64,000 nucleotides of DNA from Vermamoeba vermiformis (GCA_045837725.1 JBEWZL010000208.1:62001-126000), one strand, 5' to 3'. Positions 47,370 to 63,708 are shown, counted from the stretch's first letter. Numbers and translations: made by a program. The notes: generated from the letters alone by a model not told the origin.

Positions 47370-48812
47370 TTACATAGATACAAATAAACATACAAAGCCG
47401 ACGAATGTTGCTACAAAATCGGTGCGAGATCCAAGTGAGACAATTGAAGATGAAGGTGTCACCTGCGTTGGAGCTGTACCCTGACTAGGAGTGTTACCAG
47501 TGGACACAGGTGCTGTTTGAGGAGAGGTACTCTGAGGTGTTGACGTGTCGATTGGAGTAGCTAAAGGTGGGCTAGCAGGGACTTGAGATGCAACTGGTGC
47601 ACTGGGTGGTTCTACCATTATTGGTTTTACTAGCCTGTCCCAGTAGCATCGAGCACGTGCAGCTTGTTGTGGTGTAAATTGATGTTGACAGCTCGCAGGT
47701 GTGTATGCCATGTAGTTGTCTTGCGGCAACAAGCGTCAAGTTTGTAGGGTACTTCTCTTTGTTGCAATCATAATCTGTATGGTCTATTAGGCGGGTGCTA
47801 TACTATGCTATATGCCTCGTAGTCTTAGACTTGCCTTGAATGCTGAGTGAATTACACGAAAATGACTTCCAAACAGGTTTTGTATCGCTGCAATAATCTC
47901 CAACTACGTCCAAATTTGTGGAGTTATTGTTCTCGCTACACGCCGTGCAATACTCGGTGAATGAGTGGAGAAGGCCTAATAAACGAGAATTGTAAAAAAC
48001 GTGTTTTGAGAATTCACATCCAGAAGATTTGATCAAGCAAGCTTTATGTTAGCCTGTTTCTCGAATAAAACTTTGAATACCTAACATATGACCAGCTTCA
48101 TGTAACAATGCGGTTCCTTTGGGCGAAATCCCTCTTGCCAAATCGATCGCGGCAAACAAATGCTGTGGATGAGCCACAAGATCAATCGCTTGAGGCATGA
48201 ACGAGAATCCTAATAAATTATCGGGATTTGGGCTAAATACGCTTAATAAAACCGTTATGGATCCCCGAACAAAGTATTCTGAAGCAAGTTGCAAAGGCAA
48301 GACCTTTGTTTGTGAGGTTCAGCGTTTGATATCGATCGGTAATGACTGTGGTATTGATATTCCAGGTTATGTTCATATGTTTTCCGTACTCTTGTTGAAA
48401 GAACGCTATCTGGAAGCGACATCCGTTAAACGAAGCACGAAACGCAATAAAAAGGAATCAAATTACCTGTGCGTCGTACGTTGTCTTCGCAGTACCAGAT
48501 AATTGTCCAAAATATATTACATTCAAGTTAATGGTTATCAGCGGAGACTGGCTATTGAGCAGATACTGATCTCTATTTTTCAGTCGTTAAATCTAGTGCC
48601 AACTATCAAAAAATGGATTTTATAGCCACTTACCTTATAGAAGGATCATCGCATGCATGTCCAACGCAAGATTGTAGTGCTTTACCAACTCTATGAGAGC
48701 TTGCGGGATGGCTTGGATGTTCTGTACCGCACATAGCGCCAACAGTTTGGGTAAAGCAGCACAGCGATACTAAAACCAATACGATAATAAATGCAGCGCT
48801 AGTTGTCGACAT
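47370..48812 (-). CDS. M43 (pappalysin/ulilysin-like) metzincin metalloprotease, GPI-anchored, copy 1; 1-nt frame break near 48303
   Basis: Signal peptide, CGTEHP Cys-switch, HEAGHMLGLLHSF, GDYCSDTKP, NYMAYTPASCQHQFTPQQAAR (Met-turn), S/T/P stalk and hydrophobic tail. Confidence 0.85.
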
Positions 48813-49039: not shown

Positions 49040-50406
49040 TTAAAGTGATACAACTAAAAATACAAGGCCTACCAGCATCGCTACAATATCAGCACGAGAA
49101 GCGGTTGAAACGGCTTTAGTCGTAGGTGCCTTGACTGGAGTTTTTCCTCCGGATGTCGGCGAGATGCTGGGCTTGGGTGTGCCAGGAGGAGCTACTACTG
49201 CGAAGCTAAGAAGTCTATCTACGTAGCATCGAGCACGTGCAGCTTGTTGCGGCGTGAATTGGTCTTGACAGCTGTCAGGTGTGTATGCCATGTAGTTGTC
49301 TTGCGGCAACTGAGTCAAGTCCGTAGTGTACTGAACATTATTGCAATCATAATCTGTATGATCTATTAGGCGGGGGCTATACTATGGTATATATAAGAGG
49401 TCCTATACTTACTTCGTGGAGTCAATGCATTGCATTCAAAAGTCATCCAAACAGGTTTCGTGTCGCTGCAATAATCGCCAACAATATCCAAGTTTGGAGA
49501 GTTAACGTTCTCGCTGCAAGAGTCACAAGACGATGTGAATGTATGGAACAGACCTGCGGAATAAAATAAAATTAATAAATTAATTAAAATTGTTAGGATG
49601 ATGAATTCGCCGCGATTAAAAAAGATTTTGTTGTCGTCGTGCAGTCATCAAATTTAGACTATAACGTTATGTTTGTACTTACCTAACATATGGCCGACTT
49701 CATGGAGCAATGTAGTTCCTTGCGACGTGATCGCGTTTTGTAAATCCAAGATACCATACCATCGAGTAGGATCCGTTGCAAAGTCGAGGGATTGCGGCAA
49801 ATAAGCATATCCTAATAGATTATCGGGATTTGGATTAAATACGCTCAATAGAACTGTCGCAGCTCCTGCAACATAATATTCTGAAGCAATCTGCGCGTGG
49901 AAAGCCCTGTCCGACGCATTGACGACTTGATATCGATCCTGAACTACTTTAGTAGCAATGTTCCAACTAATATTCATGTGCTTGGCGTATTCGCTTTTAA
50001 AGAACGCGAGCTGCGAAACAGATGTCGTTATGAGCGTCGAAAATAAGGTAGAAAAATGAATCAAATTACCTGCGCGTTATATCTTGTCAAATTAATGCCT
50101 TCAAGTACACCAAAATAGACAATATTCATGTTAATTGTTACCATCGGAGACTCGCCGTTGAGCAGATACTGTTCTCTAAATATTTTAACCGTCAAATCAA
50201 ATGTTTATTAATATCTATACCTATGATACATACCTTATAGCAGGATCATCACATTCATGGTACCCGCAGGTCGGAACTGCCTTGCCAGCCCCAGATTCAG
50301 GGCGAATTGGATGCTCAGTACCGCAAGTCATGCCAGCAGGCAAGGCAAAGCTCAACGATACTAAGGCTAACACTACAATTAATATAACGCCAGTTGTTGT
50401 CGTCAT
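49040..50406 (-). CDS. M43 metalloprotease, GPI-anchored, copy 2 (tandem paralog)
   Basis: CGTEHP, HEVGHMLGLFHTF, GDYCSDTKP, NYMAYTPDSCQDQFTPQQ, hydrophobic C-terminus. Confidence 0.88.
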
Positions 50407-51628
50407 CTTATTCAACGATTAATGACTGGGCAACTGTCAAAGTTTAAAACATTTCCAAAAATGACAATACTGCGCGGTAATTTTGACGGTAGCTGCGCTT
50501 ATGAAGTTGAAAATCAAATAGATTTATACGCGATATACTATCTAATAGTTCTCATATTGTCAGTCATGCTTTAAGCCGGCTAGTAAAGTTGCAAATCCGA
50601 TCTCGCGTTTGACCCCTTGCAGCAAACATTATTTGCATTAGACAGTCATTTAACTTCGTACTAATAGTTTGTTATAATATATACCACTATGAATTAGATT
50701 TGAAAATTAATATTGGTTGCAAAACAAAAACTTGCGTAGCGCACGCATCCGTGGATTTGGGATCAAAAAATTTAGCCAAGAATTTATGTTAATGACCTCG
50801 CGACTTTGTCATAGAATTGAGGCCGGCCTCTATAATAATGTAACTGTATATTATTGTAATACAGCTAATAGTAAGCGTAGCACATAGCCTCGAAGACGCG
50901 TGCTCGTAACGAACTTATTGCTTGGTTTACTCGCGTCGTTATTGGCATAAAATGCAATAAAATAAGGAATTCATGTTCAACTATTGCAATGACGATATTG
51001 CTAGCAATAAAAATCGAGCAGATTGGGTGCGGAAATAGGTTCAGGGCACAATATGCAGAGCAAGTGCTTGAAATATCATAAAATTGGCGATTTAACTAAT
51101 TTTGTGGATTTTATCGTGTAATTAAGCGGAGTAAAATTTCTGTGTTAAAAAACGGCTCGATGTGATCTTACACAACAGAAAAATAGATAGTGCTCTTACC
51201 TTGATCGATTTCACCATGTAGTGTCGCGTATTGAATTTAGTGTGGGTCTTGGTGTACTTTTTAATCAAAATGAGGCAACATCCAGAGGCCGCGGGGCAAA
51301 AGAGCGAATGTGTGCACTACTGGTCAACTCTACCGCTGCATCAGATCAAATAGGCATTAAAATGGTAGCATATGCACCTATTAGATGCTATTGATGTCAT
51401 TCATCATCGGCTTGTGTGTTTTATGTCGGTTTTTTCGCTTGCAATGTTATTTAGTAATTTGAGCGTGAATAGAGCCCCAATACTCAAAAACTAAACTATT
51501 CCTTAGTATAGTTGTATTTGTATTATTTATTTGTTTAGTTTTTGTGTACTGTTGGAGGTAATAACCTAAATCTATTGATAGATGCGGTTTGGAAATTTAA
51601 TTCGTTTATTTTTATACTAGCTTACAAT

Positions 51629-54600
51629 ATGAGCGGAAAATCAAAAAGAAAAAATGATTCTAGGCAACTCACAGAGGAGATAGAAGACAGAGAGCTCGGC
51701 AAATACGTAAGCGAATATTGTAATTAAATAACGTCTGCACATCTTCAAAAATTTAAATACCGGGGCTACGGAGAATATCTTGAATCATCGTATAGCCAGA
51801 TATTCTCATATTCAAAATATACGAACATATTTGGCAAACGAAAATAACCTAACAAGCAGAGTTTTACAGTAGATTTAAAAAAATAAATATCGAAATAACC
51901 CTTGATATTATTATACAGCACATTGGAGAGGCTCTTGGACGAGGTGCATTCGGAGTTGTATATAAAGGATTGAATTTCGAGACAGGAGAGACTGTAGCAA
52001 TTAAGAGAATTTCAACAGAGAAGATTGCAGCCGATGCGCTTGCCTCAGTCGAAGCCGAGTTAGATCTGCTCAAAAAATTAAATCATCCGAATATTGTCAG
52101 CTATGTTGGATGTCATAGATCAGAGAAGCATCTTAATATCATCTTGGAGTACATCGAGAACGGATCTCTTCAAGCTATCGTCAAGAAGTTTGGAAAGTTT
52201 CCAGAAACACTCGTAGCTGTATATACTATGCAAGTGCTAGAAGGTCTTGAATATTTGCACGAGCAACACGTGGTTCACAGGTACATCTCGAAATGGAAGC
52301 GAAGAAATTATTTTATAATTTTTCTAACACAAATTACGCATTATTTAAGCGGTCATTATCACTACTCAAATATTTTTTACTATAATTCATATTAGATATC
52401 ATTTTTGAACGAAGAGATTGTCCGTCCAATTTTTTTTGCATTGAAAATGCGCGCAATTAACTGTGGCCTATTTTTGTTGAACAATAGGCATTTCTAAATA
52501 ACGATTATACGGAAAATCTTCAGTATAATCACGCGCGGATTTTTAATCTTTTAAAATTAATGTTCAAAAGATTCTTTAACTGCATTCACGGCCATTAATT
52601 ATTTTTAATGAAAAATTCGTATTAACGATGCTAATGACCATATTATTATAGAGATATTAAGGCCGCAAATATTTTGACGACGAAAGAAGGCACGGTAAAA
52701 TTGGCTGATTTTGGTGTCGCGACTCTGGCTAAAGTGGATAATTCAAATGAAGCTGCATTAGGCAGCCCTTATTGGTACGCATTATGAATACGATATATTA
52801 CGCATATTAAGGCATATTATTATAATTGTCGGTTGATTTGCCGTTAAAATTTGATTCAATTGCCAATATTCGCTCATTGGAAATTCTAGAAAAAGCTTAA
52901 TTGCGAATTCAATTCTAATATAGCCTTATTTAGGATGGCACCTGAAATTATCTCGATGAAGGGCGCTCAAACAGCTTCAGATATTTGGAGTTTGGGTTGC
53001 ACGATTATTGAATTGATGACCGGTCAGCCTCCATTTTTCAATTTGCCGCCGTTGTCGGCGCTGTATCATATCGCCGAATCAGATGAGCTGCCGCCCTTCC
53101 CTAAAGTACGTATACTAAATTAGGAATTAATTCCTGCGCGTATCACAAAAAAGAATTCAATCGCGCGACCGGCGCGACCGAATCTCAATGTTGTTACAGC
53201 CAATTACGGCATAGAATAATATACTGATCCTAACATTGATTAGGATATCACTGAAGACCTAACAGACTTTTTGAAACAATGTTTTGAGCGAGATCCATCG
53301 AAGCGCCCAACAGCTGAAGATCTGTTGAGCCACCCATGGATTGACGCAGCTCGTGAACGTAAAGGCGGTTCTGGCTCATTCGGAAAGGCAAGCCAAGCCT
53401 ATTATACTTATGTAAATGGTATGCTAATGATTACATAGGCTGCTGGAAATGCCGTTTTGAACGTGAGCAAGAAGCGAAAAAATCAAAGTCTGCGAGGTCC
53501 CAAAAACGCTAACGGCAAAGCTGATAAGCCTGGTATTTTGCGAAGCGCATCTTCAGCACAGCTAGGCATTTGGTCGTCATTAGAGGAAATCACAAAGCTC
53601 GAAGAACGTACGTGATCCGGAGATTTTGCCGCAGATCCAAAAGTAACCGTTACTTTTTTTGACTAGATCTTGAACAATCCAGAGAAAAGGTTATTTTGGA
53701 AGTCCGAAACAACCGTTTGTTAGAGCAACAGGTCAAGAGGCTAGACAAAAAGATTGAGTTGCTGATCAAGAACAGAATTACACTCGAAGAAGTATTGAAC
53801 ACGCCCAAATCATCACTGCTGTCCAAAACAAAGTTCCGTGGCTCATTGAACGTTGATGAAGCATCGTTGAAAGACCCAAAGATGCTCGAGGTAAGTTGAT
53901 GAGCGACAAAGACAGAAAACAAGGCACAAATCAGTCCGTCACTTTTTAGTGCAGCGAAGTGGTGTGGCTCGTTTTTTTCAAAGCGGCGGATAAGAAATTG
54001 GGCCGTTTAGCTCAGTTGGTTAGAGCATCGTGCTAATAACGCGAGGGTCCCAGGTTCGATCCCTGGAATGGCCAATTATATTTTTTCCTTTTTTGCCTTG
54101 TCAACCCTCTGCCTCCTTTTCTTGCCTCGCACTCCGCCTCACCACCTTACTGAGCTTATCATTAATTAAAGCACGGTTATTAATTTTTTTTTGGTTAGGG
54201 CTACTCCAAGCTGTTCTACGTTCTTCAGGCCAATCCGCAGTATCTTTCCAACTTTATCTTCTTCGAGTTCGATGGTGTTGAAGAGATGATCGAAACTATT
54301 ATTTTGACGCTTTACGGCTACGCCTTTTCAGCCCGAGAAGAGTTTTTGTTGCTGTCTTTCTTAGGATCAGCAATCTCGCGAGAGATTAAGAACTTGAGCG
54401 ATATTACTGCCTTCCAAGAAGGAGCTGCTCTTCTTATTCAAATGGTTATGGCTTATTGCCGGTAAGTTTCGCGGATTTAGATGCGCTCATCTAAGTTACC
54501 GTTACTAACCTGATTTCATTCAGACGTGTACAGGAACAAGAGTTTATTCGCTCTCTTCTAGGCAACGTCATCGAACAGGTGCTTGCTAAGGCGAATGTTA

Positions 54601-57429
54601 GCTTGGAAATTCAACCCATGAAGGTCTATAAGGATCTCATTAACGAGGAAGAAATGACTACAGGAGGTCAAAGTACATTGAATCCTGATGCTACTGAAGC
54701 TGAAGTGCGCAACAATCCACGCGTACAAGAACAGCTCAAGAAGCGAGTACGACAGCTGATCGAGTTGTCGGATTTGTTCATCAATGCTATTATCAACTCC
54801 TTGGACTTCTTCCCTTACGGTCTGCGATGGATCTCGAAGCAGATCCGTATGGCTCTCGGCGACAAGTTTAAGAACGCTACTAATACCGAAATTATGCCTA
54901 TTATTGGGTGAGTACAAGCAAATCCGCGTGCTGTCATAGAATCTCCGCGTCGGACAATTACAATGTACTGACAAAGGCTTTACTTTACTATAGTTACCTT
55001 GTATACTACCGTTTCATGAACCCCGCTATCGTTACTCCTGACGACTACGAAATGGCAGATTCGGTCAGCAATTTGCAACGTACCAACCTCATTAACGTAA
55101 GCTTCGGTTTTATTTCCTATTTTTATCACCTATTCGGTTATTTCATACTCTGCCTATTAACGCAATTTCTTTATTGATTTACCTTCGGATATTTCCTTTG
55201 TGTTAATCTATTTTGTCCCCGCAGATCTCCAAAATTTTGTCGAACATTGTCAACAACAAGTATCTCGAAGGCCGTGGCAGCGAAGTCGAGGAGCTCAATA
55301 GCTACATTAAGAAGAGTAACGAACGATTCTGGAAGTTTTTGGATCAAGTAACGCAAGCGCCAGATCCGATCGAACACCTCCAAGTCAGTACCAACCGACA
55401 ACGAGTCATTATAGGCCTAAGATACTAACATTGCATAATAGATCGATCAAAAGTACATCGAGTACACTCAGACGCAGAAGCCAGTAATTTATATCTCGCC
55501 CAACGAGATCTTCTTGACTCACAAGTTACTGCGAGAACACCTCGACAAACTCGCGCCTAATAAGGACGATCCGTTGAGAAAAGTCATCTCGAGCTTGCCT
55601 GGTAGGATTGCTATTTTTAAACTTTAATTTACATATTTTTAGCTCTTTTTTTGGTAGCGATCATCAATCAAGATTTAATGTGAATTATTTCTAGTGGCAT
55701 TTAAATTACATTACTTAATCAAGGTTAAAAGCCAATATTTCATTACTTAACCATACTCAGTTAATTTATCGATTGGTTTTTAATTTGGAGGTTTAATTCA
55801 TAAGAATGCAAACTCATTTTTTCGAACGGATTTGTCTAATTACTAAATATAGCTCCTCCCCCTATTATCGATGATCCTAAGATGGAGGCCGAGATATCGC
55901 TTACTCTGCAGCCCGAAGATACCCAAGAAGTCGATAGTAAGTCGTGCTGACTTGTTTCCATATCGATTGAACGCGCTAACGGATTCGTTTTTTTAACGCA
56001 GTTCAAGTCAAGCAAGATAAGGAAGAGGTTCATAAGTTCTACTCGTTGACCAAGAAGATGATTTGCGAGATCATTAAGGACAGCTACAAAGAGCACTTGA
56101 ACGAGCTGAACTTGCTCGATCTGCTCACGGGCTCAGATGTGAAAATGAACAGCAAGCTTACTTTGCAAGTCGCTAAGATCTTGGAGAACTTAGAGAAGTT
56201 GGAGAAGAGCAATATGGTCAGCAAGGCTAACTCGTATAAGAAGATTATGGATGACATCCACAAGGTAAACCAGATTCACTAAACGTAAATCAAAAGCTTG
56301 CTGTTGCGATATTAACGTGGATTTTTAGGACGTTGTATCGAAGACGGAGATGCGCGGTAAACTTGAAAAGGAGCTCACTACCTTGAAGAACGTAAGTACC
56401 GCATCTATTTCGCTTAGTGTTGCGATTAGGCCGGGTCTCGGAGACCTTCCGTGCCTCTAAATTTTATTAATAACGTGCTCGTAAAATTTTTCCATTTTTG
56501 TCTATTTTTGCAACAATTTTGCCAACGAGCGCGCAAAATCACCTTTTTTAGATCCGGGGCTCTCTTGCCCGACTTTAACGATTCAAATTTCTTATGCCGG
56601 GTTACTATCTCTACTTCCATCACTAGCGTTTAGCGATCGGTGTTGACTTGCGAAATCCGGGTGCGAATCCGTTACTAACCAACGTTTTTCAGACCATGGA
56701 CAAACTCAAAGAGAAGAAGGATTACCTCGAGAAGCAGTTAAACGAATATAACAACTATGTTAAGGCCTGCTTAGAGCAATCTGTCGTTAAGTAAGTCATT
56801 TCTCGTTGTTGTTGATCGGGTGGATCGAGCATTTACTAAACACCTCGTTTATCACCTATAGGAAGAAGGCTAGCAGCAAGAAGAAGAAGCTGGCGACCTT
56901 GAAGTATACCTGCGCTCAACTGATCAAGAAGGGCGTTATTGTCGAGATCGACATCCCTTCGAACCAGTAAGTCGTTTGGGAACTTGAACTCAATTCCTAA
57001 TTAGTACTGATCAATATACTTTATAGACATTCGTCCGTATCATTAGAACTGAGCGAAACTGATCAAGTTGGCACGTACGAGGCCCAAATCTACTTCGCCG
57101 CCATTAGTGTCGAGAAAATTAAGCTGGAGATTGATGATCTGCTTGAAAAACAAGTAAGTGCATCCGATCCATTAGATCTTATTATCAATATTTATTTATC
57201 AATCGCTAAATCATGCGATAAGCTCCGCTGAGCTTCTAGAAACACAGGCAATCGAATCTGATTGCTTAGTTTTGCTTTTTAAACTCCAACCGTCATCATT
57301 CGAATATATATTGATCTATATATTGTATTATAGTACAACGGCGAGTACTTTGTATATTTGTTGGACAGAAGATGCAAGTTGCGTATTAACTTGCTTATCC
57401 ACATTCTGAATAAGATCGCCGTCCAGTAA
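51629..57429 (+). CDS. Cdc15/Cdc7(SepA)-like STE kinase fused to an IQGAP-like RasGAP-related and RasGAP_C region, multi-exon
   Basis: [38 protein letters not shown]; then [93 protein letters not shown]. Confidence 0.88.
54001..54074 (+). tRNA. trnI: tRNA-Ile, anticodon AAT, inside an intron of the kinase-IQGAP gene
   Basis: GGCCGTT...AATGGCC-A acceptor stem, D-arm TAGCTCAGTTGGTTAGAGC, anticodon loop CTAATAA, T-loop GGTTCGATCC, followed by a T6 Pol III terminator. Confidence 0.96.
54081..54086 (+). terminator. RNA polymerase III terminator (T6) of tRNA-Ile
   Basis: TTTTTT starting 7 nt after the tRNA 3' end. Confidence 0.75.
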
Positions 57430-58671
57430 GAGAAAAGAATAATATATCAAATCAATGTAGAATACCTTGCTGCGCATAGCACTCACGTTTCCACCGAAGT
57501 TTATCGATAGATTCGCCTTGTAGAGATAGATACGAAACAAAAACCCTTTTTTTCAATTATTATTCTTTTCTTATCGTTGTACTTTAATATCTTTTGCAAT
57601 AATCAATTGGATTGACTTTAAATAAAAGAAGATCTGCTTGGTTTCACTTGCGTATCCGGGTCAATTTGCGCGACAAACCCTATAAAACGATAAATCATGC
57701 GTGCATAATTGTCAATCACAAACGTAAACTCGATTTATCCTCGCTTGGCACGGTTTTCGAACTAGGCCGATCCCTCACGGCGAATTGTCTGGTGCAAGGA
57801 CGCCAGTGCCTCCGAACACGAGACCCGACTGAATAATAGCAAAGTTACTTACTTCCATATTTGTCTTTTTTTTGGTTTAAGGAAAGGATTAATTAGATAA
57901 ATCTGGTTACTTCATGCGAATTTATGACAAAAATAGCACTCGTAGATTTCCCTCAGCGTCTTTTGTTTGCTTGGTATTAGTCCGTATTGGAACAAAAGAT
58001 GTATAAGGATCCACGTAAACCATTTTAACTATAAAAATCATCGGAGGTAAATAGTTGCAAAGTCATCCGGTTATTACATCTGTGCGATCTAACCGCATCT
58101 GCTCCAAATAAGTCTGAGCATAGCCACCATCGCGATGCTATTGCGTCATCAACACGCGTTCCTAAGAACTAACCTAAAGTGCAGAAAAAAATTAATTACC
58201 ATAAAAGGCGATTGGATCGATGTTCAGAAATCCATTCACTGAAGCAAAATGGACGTTAATTAAGGGTTTGGAATGTCCGAAAATCCATTGAGCGTATACA
58301 TCACTACCTTGAAGCCACGATTGCACGATCCATAGTCGGGGCATATTTATCGATTATTTGATAAAAATCTGGCGCAGATCCGCCTTTTTTGGCTAGAGCA
58401 TCGGATTTTGAGTTTATCCGCTTATAGAAATTTCGGAGGTTGAATCGCCTGTGCACGCTGAAACTATTTGCCGCATCAGGCGGTCCATAAAAGTCGTTTT
58501 GGAGCACGGTTTGGTTCAGTTCATAAATTCAGAGGTAGATCAACACCACAACAGGCTTTATTAAGCTCGATCCGTACTCGAAAGCCCCTTTATTAATCCA
58601 TAATGTAAGTGGCGATAACTTTTAGACGGGTTTAGCGATAAGGAACTAATAAGAGTCGGTTAGAACCACAA

Positions 58672-62056: not shown

Positions 62057-63708
62057 ATGGAATACAAAACGTGAGTGTGGATTTGAAGTTTGGGGCTCGC
62101 CCCCAAAATATTAATCTTCCTATTTTAATTAAAATAAAATTATTGTGCATTACTATTTTATTAAAGCATTAATTTATAAATATTATCAAAAGAGACACGT
62201 TTATTTATTTCTAACGGGTTTTTAGTGCAGATATTCTGACAATTACGGACTCAAAGGAGGCCGATCAATACGATATTGCAGTTAAGGAGCTGCAAGGCCG
62301 ACCATTCTTGAAGGCAGTCGTATTCAAAAGCAAAATCGAACCGTCTTATTCCGATTTCGTTACCTTGTGTCATACGATAGGCACTCATCCTCGTGTTGAA
62401 TGTTTAGGCCTAGTAGAATATCACTCGGAATTAAAAGAAGCCGAGACTAAGCCGCTCGCCGAGTGGATCAGCAAAACAACAAAGCTGAAAAAACTATGTT
62501 TCAAAGATAGACTATTATCAAACGAATGTTGGAAGCTAATGTTCGATACAATTAATAGTAGCACTTCGATAACGAGCCTATCATTCGATTATCAAAATAG
62601 TCAGCGATTAGGTTTTCAGCACGAGTTTAATGGTGTCGAGCACTTGATCCAAACCATCAAAACCAATACAACAATTAGAGCGCTGAGTATTTGTATAAAT
62701 ACGAAACCTCATCGATTAAAGCCTATTACTGCAGCTCTTTTAGAGAACAAAACAATCACGGATGTCAAGTTATCGAAACTCTTTGACAGCGATTGTAACA
62801 CACTTCGGATGATACTCCAGCAGAATGACAAGCTTAAAGCACTTCATATCAATGACAGTATGATTAAGAGTGACGGTGTGAAGATAATATACGATAGTTT
62901 AAGAGAAAACAAGTCTTTGACATCCTTCGGATTCATCGGAAATCCTGTCAGTGACGAAGGATGTCAGTGGATCATACGCATGTTAAGCGACACAAAGTTG
63001 ATAGATTTAACGCTAGAAAATGTTGGATTGACGCCAAAAGCCACGAGGTCAATCCTTCAAGCTGTCAAGTGCCATCGATCATTGAAAAAGTTGAGCCTGG
63101 CAAAGAACGAACTCAACTCACTCGCATCACTTATCTGCGATGTACTTAAAGTTAATACGACACTAGAAGAGCTCGATTTGACGAAGTGTAATCTACAAGG
63201 TCAAATGGAGATTATTGCGAATGGACTGAAGGAGAATAGCACCTTGCAAAAGTTGTTGATCGGCGACAACGAACTCCATGTTGACGACGTGGAACACATC
63301 TGCAGCGCCCTTCACGAGAACAAAGGATTAACCTCACTTAATATGTCAAGATCAGCATTCCTTCAACATAATAGTGGCCAGCTTTGTGCTGCGGTTGAAA
63401 AGAACAAAGCTCTCATTGACGTGGAAGCCAACGTGAAAGGTTGGATTTATGGTTACACTACCAGGTTGAAAAATGCGCTACAAGTCAACCGTAAGCATCA
63501 GAATGCAGTGGTCGTTGAACGAGCCATTATCATTCTTAACATTGCTCGAACGAAGCCACGACCACTCTTGCCCGAGATCTGGATAACAATATTCTCATTC
63601 ATCTCGTCTCCTGGCATTCATATCAACTGGGGTCATGTTATCTCGCAAGCATTCGTCAACCCAAATCGCCTGGACATAACAAAGATCGAGAATAAACGTC
63701 AAGATTAG
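62057..63708 (+). CDS. RI-like LRR protein, copy 2 (tandem paralog)
   Basis: Colinear with copy 1; first exon MEYKT spliced to ADILTITD; C-terminal LLPEIWITIFSFI. Confidence 0.85.

Follow-up and report, generated by a model that had tools for sequence, protein, structure and literature searches.

Roles in cytokinesis have long been studied both for the kinases that act in the mitotic exit network (MEN) or in the septation initiation network (SIN) and for the IQGAP proteins Iqg1, Rng2, DGAP1 and GAPA. In budding yeast the GTPase Tem1 recruits the kinase Cdc15 in addition to contacting an IQGAP, and the MEN controls Iqg1 through Cdc14. Here a gene is described in which members of the two families are joined: the window analysed, a stretch of 64,000 nucleotides from the amoeba Vermamoeba vermiformis (GCA_045837725.1 JBEWZL010000208.1:62001-126000), carries at positions 51629-57429 of the plus strand a gene that encodes a Cdc15-type protein kinase followed by an IQGAP-type module in a single protein of 1058 residues.

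The papers below are cited by PMC accession and from excerpts. In IQGAPs a threonine replaces the catalytic arginine at the finger position of Ras GTPase-activating proteins (RasGAPs), and the GAP-related domain (GRD) is a pseudo-RasGAP; the RGCT region is a GTP-dependent Cdc42-binding domain of IQGAP1 and IQGAP2, and a Cdc42-induced dimerisation of the GRD has been proposed (PMC9408373). The GRD plus RGCt of yeast Iqg1 binds the MEN GTPase Tem1 (PMC4571329). In Dictyostelium, cytokinesis requires DGAP1 and GAPA, which bind active Rac1 as well as cortexillins (PMC13628810; PMC3296274; PMC2139833; PMC2978108), and a null mutant of septase, the Cdc7 homologue, shows delayed cytokinesis (PMC9016623).

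The Vermamoeba protein shares its module order with DGAP1 (rgaA), GAPA and the Balamuthia protein P0299, without CH domain or canonical IQ motif (PMC3296274, excerpt). Identity to the short amoebozoan IQGAPs is about 35% over the IQGAP half, and in the fusion a kinase domain with a linker takes the place of the roughly 100-150 residues at the N-terminus of these IQGAPs. Binding of Rac1 and cortexillins is known for DGAP1 and GAPA. Human IQGAP1, IQGAP2 and IQGAP3 are similar to it in the GRD, the C-terminal domain, the non-arginine finger and the YYR motif, and differ from it in having CH, WW and IQ regions, threonine instead of glutamate at the finger, and an identity of 30-33%. With Cdc15, Cdc7, SepH, septase and MAP3K-epsilon the protein has in common an N-terminal kinase with the full set of catalytic motifs; in those kinases, however, a C-terminal ARM-type tail (PF24768 in many of the matches) is found where the fusion has its IQGAP module. 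The domain types of two partners of Tem1, Iqg1 and Cdc15, which are separate polypeptides in yeast, are found in one chain in the amoeba, in keeping with Rosetta-stone reasoning.

One gene and one messenger RNA

The kinase half and the IQGAP half are parts of one gene, which is expressed as one mRNA. A model built from coordinates alone, in which open stretches of the plus strand were linked through GT/GC..AG pairs that preserve the frame, comprises 19 exons and a coding sequence of 3177 nt, from the ATG at 51629 to the TAA at 57427-57429, and reproduces exactly the limits given in the original prediction, which had been made from the same DNA. A stop codon lies in frame 30 codons 5' of the ATG, and under no splicing but this 19-exon one does the frame stay open between ATG and TAA. 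Seventeen of the 18 introns are of the GT-AG type, the exception being intron 5 (GC-AG), and the surroundings of the gene are eukaryotic and intron-rich.

The predicted product has close counterparts among known proteins: 1029 of its 1058 residues are identical in a database protein of the same length (P0001), and 1031 of 1058 match an open reading frame (ORF) of 1058 residues from a Trinity assembly in EukProt labelled Vermamoeba vermiformis (P0129). Proteins of 1058 residues that are 97% identical to the window product are encoded on contigs of 3.4-4.0 kb, the size of a transcript. The 40 strain differences with the best support include 38 synonymous ones and 37 at third codon positions, evidence of purifying selection on the fusion gene.

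The fusion hinges on the splicing of intron 5, since this intron contains, and thus removes, an in-frame TAG (53436-53438) after the kinase. RNA from four public runs (X1, X4, X21 and X23) was compared with positions 51500-57600. In X1, a contig of 2807 nt is spliced and unbroken from exon 2 to exon 14, that is, from the kinase exons into RasGAP_C, and its positions agree exactly with the exon lengths of the model (for example, the 313 nt between exon 4 and exon 7 correspond to exons 5 and 6 together); in X4, exons 2 to 6 are covered by a contig of 835 nt. The joint of intron 5 was seen in one contig of X1, in one contig of X4 and in five raw RNA reads with four start sites in X23, hence in three studies. 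It appears as 53385>53437 with a skip of 51 nt and, with four ambiguous letters, is the same as 53388-53438. Overall, at least 15 of the 18 model introns were recovered among the 24 RNA joints.

Other ways of reading this region were considered. A 27-nt GT-AG intron starting at 53412, the sole in-frame GT alternative, is implausible in itself and is ruled out by the 51-nt skip in the RNA. Termination of translation at TAG 53436 is ruled out by the same skip together with the junction of P0001, which shares ...GK/AAGN... with the window product, as does the EukProt Vermamoeba ORF. Two broken variants from the same protein clusters, P0126 and P0139, retain the span from kinase to GRD.

A more general objection is that two adjacent genes are present, a kinase ending at TAG 53436 and a downstream IQGAP, and that the fusion is an artefact of the model or of read-through. 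The in-frame TAG and the fact that its only bypass is a non-canonical GC-AG intron agree with such an arrangement, and several features of the RNA data likewise weaken the case for a single transcription unit. In X21 the IQGAP exons are covered by reads, with zero reads on the intron-5 joint, on the kinase exons and anywhere in 51500-53131. X1 and X4 were typed as RNA by a software guess only, their contigs being spliced nonetheless. Most reads of X21 and X23 are only 90-95% alike to the window and hence come from a relative, and the depth of raw reads is low and climbs toward the 3' end; an extra, shorter transcript may exist besides the full-length mRNA. Nevertheless, contigs of both X1 and X4, like the five X23 reads, have the 51-nt splice, and a single spliced contig connects exon 2 with exon 14. 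Exons 6 and 7, where the IQGAP homology starts, contain no methionine with which a separate protein could begin, the first one after residue 216 being residue 422, past the conserved coiled coil. The 1058-residue ORFs on contigs of transcript size, the same architecture in 14 further proteins at 50-56% identity and the congruent trees of the two halves (see below) also speak against two genes, an arrangement that we regard as highly improbable. The contiguous spliced frame from kinase to IQGAP claimed in the original prediction is thereby borne out by RNA over the critical span of 53340-53700, where contigs and reads, instead of ending after the kinase, continue across the junction 53387/53439.

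Kinase, linker and IQGAP module

Per-exon Pfam searches returned Pkinase, RasGAP and RasGAP_C, the three domains expected for this protein. Pkinase extends over exons 2-5 (positions 3-263 of the 263 in the profile), and all catalytic motifs are intact (GRGAFG at residue 33, VAIK at 52, HRDIKAAN at 146, DFG at 166 and APE at 190). HRDIKAAN, DFG and SPYWMAPE are kept in every row of the fusion alignment that covers them and, judged by these motifs, the kinase domain is catalytically competent. The nearest named matches outside the fusions, with 331-388 bits and 52-60% identity, bear the names 'Protein kinase of the Mitotic Exit Network', 'cytokinesis protein sepH' and 'MAP3K epsilon', which agrees with the intact Cdc15/Cdc7-like STE kinase that had been proposed; solved STE kinases (MAP3K2, STK25, MST1 and others) do not exceed 191 bits. 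A C-terminal ARM-type tail was sought as PF24768 and was found neither in the window exons by Pfam nor among the 16 fusion entries. From these domain assignments, the ARM tail of canonical Cdc15-type kinases is replaced by the IQGAP module, which stands in its place; the original prediction can be refined in this respect.

The linker between the halves varies in length and sequence across 18 fusion proteins and cannot be aligned except for a conserved L-R-[ST]-x-S-S motif, in which S331 and S332 are invariant in the 18 proteins and L327 and R328 nearly so. This motif looks like a candidate phosphorylation site for a basophilic kinase. A protein atlas search with the linker and the coiled coil gave no usable match.

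The IQGAP homology begins with the coiled coil, near residue 340 in an alignment with short IQGAPs of the Balamuthia type, and IQGAP-only matches begin at query residues 323-350; kinase and linker occupy the place of the roughly 100-150 N-terminal residues of short IQGAPs. Pfam RasGAP was found in exons 9-10 (1.8e-27 and 6.6e-07). Residues 420-784 of P0001 match residues 8-378 of the IQGAP2 GRD chain 5cjp_E with an E value of 1.9e-75, and exon 8 of the window alone matches IQGAP2 at 3.6e-12. RasGAP_C was assigned in exons 14, 16 and 17, and PF03836 is precomputed for P0001. The C-terminal tail of the window product is conserved with that of P0002, a fragment and 70%-identical relative, whose tail matches the C-terminal structures of IQGAP1 (1x0h, 1.3e-15), IQGAP3 (3isu) and IQGAP2 (3iez). 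Neither a CH domain (PF00307) nor an IQ motif (PF00612) was found by Pfam in any exon or in the precomputed Pfam domains of P0001, and the IQ consensus had no match by regular expression in the 1058-residue product. Coiled coil, GRD, RasGAP_C and C-terminal domain follow one another as in a complete short IQGAP module. The original prediction had named the first three of these and had also noted the lack of CH and IQ regions; as a second refinement, the IQGAP half belongs, by its domain content and order, with the short amoebozoan forms resembling DGAP1 and GAPA.

The arginine finger and the FLR motif of catalytic RasGAPs (p120GAP, neurofibromin) are absent from the GRD of the window. In their places stand FQEG and YYR, exactly as first proposed: in the alignment of exon 8, the glutamate of FQEG aligns to the threonine of IVTG in the GRD structures of IQGAP1 and IQGAP2, and IQGAP1/2 have YYRYMNPAIV at the place aligned with YYR. 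Across 18 fusion proteins the finger position is never arginine (glutamate, or aspartate/glutamate in relatives), and YYR is present in 17 and YHR in one. It could be argued that the GRD is an active GAP by non-arginine catalysis, which would make the protein a kinase with a true GTPase off-switch, inasmuch as GAPs of other Ras-superfamily members may use non-arginine catalytic residues (PMC9408373). However, in the same source, as excerpted, the GRD of IQGAP1 had no GAP activity on eight Ras-family GTPases, the T1046R mutant included, the acidic finger and YYR/YHR are present in all 18 fusion proteins, and the closest structures are IQGAP GRDs: the GRD of P0001 scores 258 bits against IQGAP2 and 231 bits against IQGAP1, whereas p120GAP reaches 29 bits and neurofibromin 21-23 bits with the GRD of P0002. 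An active GAP is thus considered very unlikely.

In an AlphaFold model the GRD is confident and helical, with a predicted local distance difference test (pLDDT) of 80-94 over most of its length; residues 284-323 are below 50, and helices at 337-384 and 888-948 (60 residues) and strands at 962-1044 can be recognized. The model as a whole is modest (mean pLDDT 66.5, predicted template-modelling score 0.40, kinase residues 104-200 below 50) and is uninformative on contacts between the kinase and IQGAP halves. A shallow alignment accounts for the poor modelling of the kinase part, and the model was used for domain boundaries only.

Distribution and origin of the fusion

By the match of 1031 of 1058 residues to the EukProt ORF, the host of the gene is Vermamoeba vermiformis or a very close relative; its lineage is Amoebozoa, Tubulinea, Echinamoebida. 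A search with P0001 listed 16 entries (the query, 14 homologues and the fragment P0002) before the score dropped from 950 to 388 bits, the value at which kinase-only proteins start. The 14 homologues have 911-1081 residues, 50-54% identity and the same architecture; 15 of the 16 top entries are annotated Pkinase+RasGAP+RasGAP_C, and the exception, P0002, belongs to a cluster that contains the full-length P0135. With the IQGAP half as query, 16 proteins of at least 47% identity were listed besides the query, all of them fusions or fragments of fusions, followed by the Balamuthia 'rgaA'-like protein P0299 at 35% and by IQGAPs with CH and filamin domains and vertebrate IQGAP3 at 30-33%. Among the best 150 matches from 1.84 billion representative proteins, the only fusions were P0006 and the fragment P0150. 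Other architectures combining kinase and RasGAP were looked for in the 19 long multi-stretch matches among these best 150; none had RasGAP, and repeated kinase domains were found instead. One of the 10 closest kinase-only or IQGAP-only representatives was labelled Rhodelphis.

The labelled members of the fusion family come from Vermamoeba and Echinamoeba, both Echinamoebida, and from one NCBI record filed under locust. This RefSeq protein (P0010: XP_049850344.1 and isoforms, on a contig of 366 kb, filed under Schistocerca gregaria with the name 'rgaA') belongs to the family in full length, at about 50% identity, and lies within the fusion clade in both trees; the contig probably derives from an amoebozoan associate or contaminant and not from the insect. 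Public names of full-length family members are inconsistent ('IQGAP2/3', 'serine/threonine protein kinase', 'rgaA'), and the cluster of P0001 includes a C-terminal fragment of 380 residues (P0127) whose source annotation is 'valyl-tRNA synthetase'.

In the tree of IQGAP halves all 18 fusions form one clade, with a support of 100 in the Shimodaira-Hasegawa-like approximate likelihood ratio test (SH-aLRT) and a stem branch of 0.7. In the kinase tree, which is poorly rooted, the halves of all 10 fusions included group together with the fragment P0157 (SH-aLRT 87) and fall among Cdc15/SepH/MAP3K-epsilon-type proteins. The grouping of the fusions by both halves fits a single origin. Among metagenome loci, the closest kinase-only ones (L034, L037 and L045) are 58-63% identical and have a Cdc15-type ARM tail downstream; this tail was found in 25 of 80 kinase-only loci, the closest ones included, and an IQGAP half in none of these 80, which had been picked by kinase motif patterns.

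Two points weigh on the other side. The kinase tree is not cleanly rooted, since three of six unlabelled outgroup rows of lower identity fell inside, and the IQGAP half has 31-39% identity to any non-fused IQGAP among the matches, which together with the long stem of 0.7 suggests that binding partners may have changed. Based on the trees and alignments, we conclude that the fusion arose once, that a small clade with Echinamoeba among its members has retained it, catalytic motifs intact, and, as far as annotated domains indicate, that the combination of kinase and IQGAP domains is confined to this small amoebal clade. No description of a kinase-IQGAP fusion was found in the literature searched, and look-ups of terms in PMC13299636 and PMC4177888 returned none.

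Possible roles, coordinates and neighbouring genes

Any function of the fusion protein is deduced wholly from its homologues, and this tells against every detailed statement of its role, including the one favoured here. As a whole, we find it reasonably probable that the protein is an active Cdc15-type kinase whose own IQGAP module places it under the control of a small GTPase. By analogy with other IQGAPs, the GRD would bind small GTPases without switching them off, and the GRD, RGCT and C-terminal domain would together bind a GTP-loaded GTPase of the Rho family (Rac-like), and probably cortical actin cross-linkers too. Binding of the GTPase would recruit the kinase to the cleavage furrow or cell cortex, and might activate it, probably in cytokinesis; there the kinase might phosphorylate targets that belong to a cytoskeletal or MEN/SIN/Hippo-like pathway. 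The outcome would be a Cdc15-type kinase hard-wired to small-GTPase control through an IQGAP module. The original prediction had likewise seen a kinase attached to a cortical scaffold that binds Rac/Cdc42 and works in cytokinesis and, on the same analogies, we infer as much.

With regard to the process involved, a serious rival to cytokinesis is that the fusion serves processes driven by Rac (motility, adhesion or phagocytosis/macropinocytosis) and phosphorylates cytoskeletal targets directly, not by way of a MEN/SIN/Hippo-like cascade, which we hold to be possible though less probable. The ARM tail ties Cdc15 and Cdc7 to spindle-pole signalling, and its loss in the fusion would agree with a role of this kind. 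In addition, IQGAP-related proteins of Dictyostelium act in migration, chemotaxis and macroendocytosis (PMC13628810, PMC3296274), and septase controls cell-substrate adhesion too (PMC9016623). Conversely, both parental families have roles in cytokinesis, which is therefore the simplest process for them to share, though not the sole one.

A further-reaching proposal, to which we assign a low probability, is that of a self-contained switch from GTPase to kinase, which would reflect an ancient physical coupling, preserved in one chain, of a MEN/SIN/Hippo-type top kinase with an IQGAP through a shared GTPase and would involve trans-activation. GRD and RGCT would bind the GTPase that controls the kinase, which would be Rac or else, following the example of Iqg1 and Cdc15 in yeast, a GTPase like Tem1/Spg1, and GTPase-induced pairing of the IQGAP modules would allow two kinase domains to meet and trans-activate each other at the furrow. 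If this were true, Cdc15-type kinases and IQGAPs, where they are separate in other eukaryotes, would act in one complex on one GTPase.

Returning to the favoured view of a Cdc15-type kinase governed through its IQGAP module, its relevance lies in the fact that the link between a Cdc15-type kinase and an IQGAP in yeast is indirect, as Tem1 binds Iqg1 and the MEN controls Iqg1 via Cdc14, and that a conserved natural fusion is independent comparative evidence that both halves act on the same process, perhaps with the same GTPase. It also adds a kinase to the known N-terminal modules carried by IQGAP scaffolds. Being built of well-known domains and present in a small clade, the fusion is not surprising in kind.

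Table 1. Coordinates of the kinase-IQGAP gene, its parts and other features of the window
Feature	Position	Strand	Residues	Remarks
Exons 1-5	51629-51706, 51919-52280, 52652-52774, 52934-53105, 53244-53387	+		
Exons 6-10	53439-53607, 53667-53890, 54199-54461, 54524-54907, 54994-55096	+		
Exons 11-15	55225-55383, 55442-55601, 55853-55936, 56002-56264, 56329-56391	+		
Exons 16-19	56693-56790, 56862-56966, 57027-57153, 57334-57429	+		
Protein kinase domain	51704-53342	+	26-278	Exons 1-5; Cdc15/Cdc7/SepH/MAP3K-epsilon type
Linker	53343-53567	+	279-336	Variable, basic, Gly/Ser/Lys-rich; predicted disordered; intron 5 within
Intron 5	53388-53438	+		51 nt, GC-AG (AAG/GCAAGC ... CTAAT ... TAG), CTAAT branch-like motif
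L-R-[ST]-x-S-S motif	53538-53555	+	327-332	Conserved inside the linker
Long helix / coiled coil	53568-53770	+	337-384	Includes intron 6; common to short IQGAPs
GRD, IQGAP type	53876-55863	+	420-784	Exons 7-13
FQEG	54412-54423	+	496-499	Glu498 (54418-54420) at arginine-finger position
YYR	55004-55012	+	644-646	Stands for RasGAP FLR
RasGAP_C (RGCT) region	56172-56952	+		Pfam, exons 14, 16, 17; long helix at residues 888-948
C-terminal beta-rich domain	56896-57426	+	962-1058	Equivalent of the IQGAP extreme C-terminal domain
tRNA-Ile (anticodon AAT)	54001-54074	+		Within intron 7 (53891-54198)
Metalloprotease-like open stretches	47370-48318, 49040-50076	-		Upstream
Open frames of 509 and 497 aa	60315-61844, 62215-63708	+		Downstream; intron-free

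Regarding the introns of the gene, six of the 18 are of just 51-62 nt, and a branch-like motif CT[AG]A[CT] is present in 11 of the 18, with its A located 10-26 nt from the 3' splice site. Intron 7 harbours a tRNA-Ile gene on the same strand as its host. This tRNA is intact (ARAGORN; Rfam tRNA, 65.4 bits), is followed by a T run and is not part of the protein-coding sequence; the RNA reads over it have flanks on both sides that differ from the window and thus derive from other tRNA-Ile copies.

Upstream of the gene, the two open stretches on the minus strand are paralogous and each has an HExxH zinc-metalloprotease motif (HEAGHMLG and HEVGHMLG), followed by a stretch rich in Pro/Ser/Thr and then by a hydrophobic tail; they look like a tandem pair of genes for membrane-anchored metalloprotease-like proteins. 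Downstream, the products of the two open frames are clear paralogues with a leucine-rich-repeat-like periodicity and near-identical C-terminal ends, and represent a tandem duplicate.

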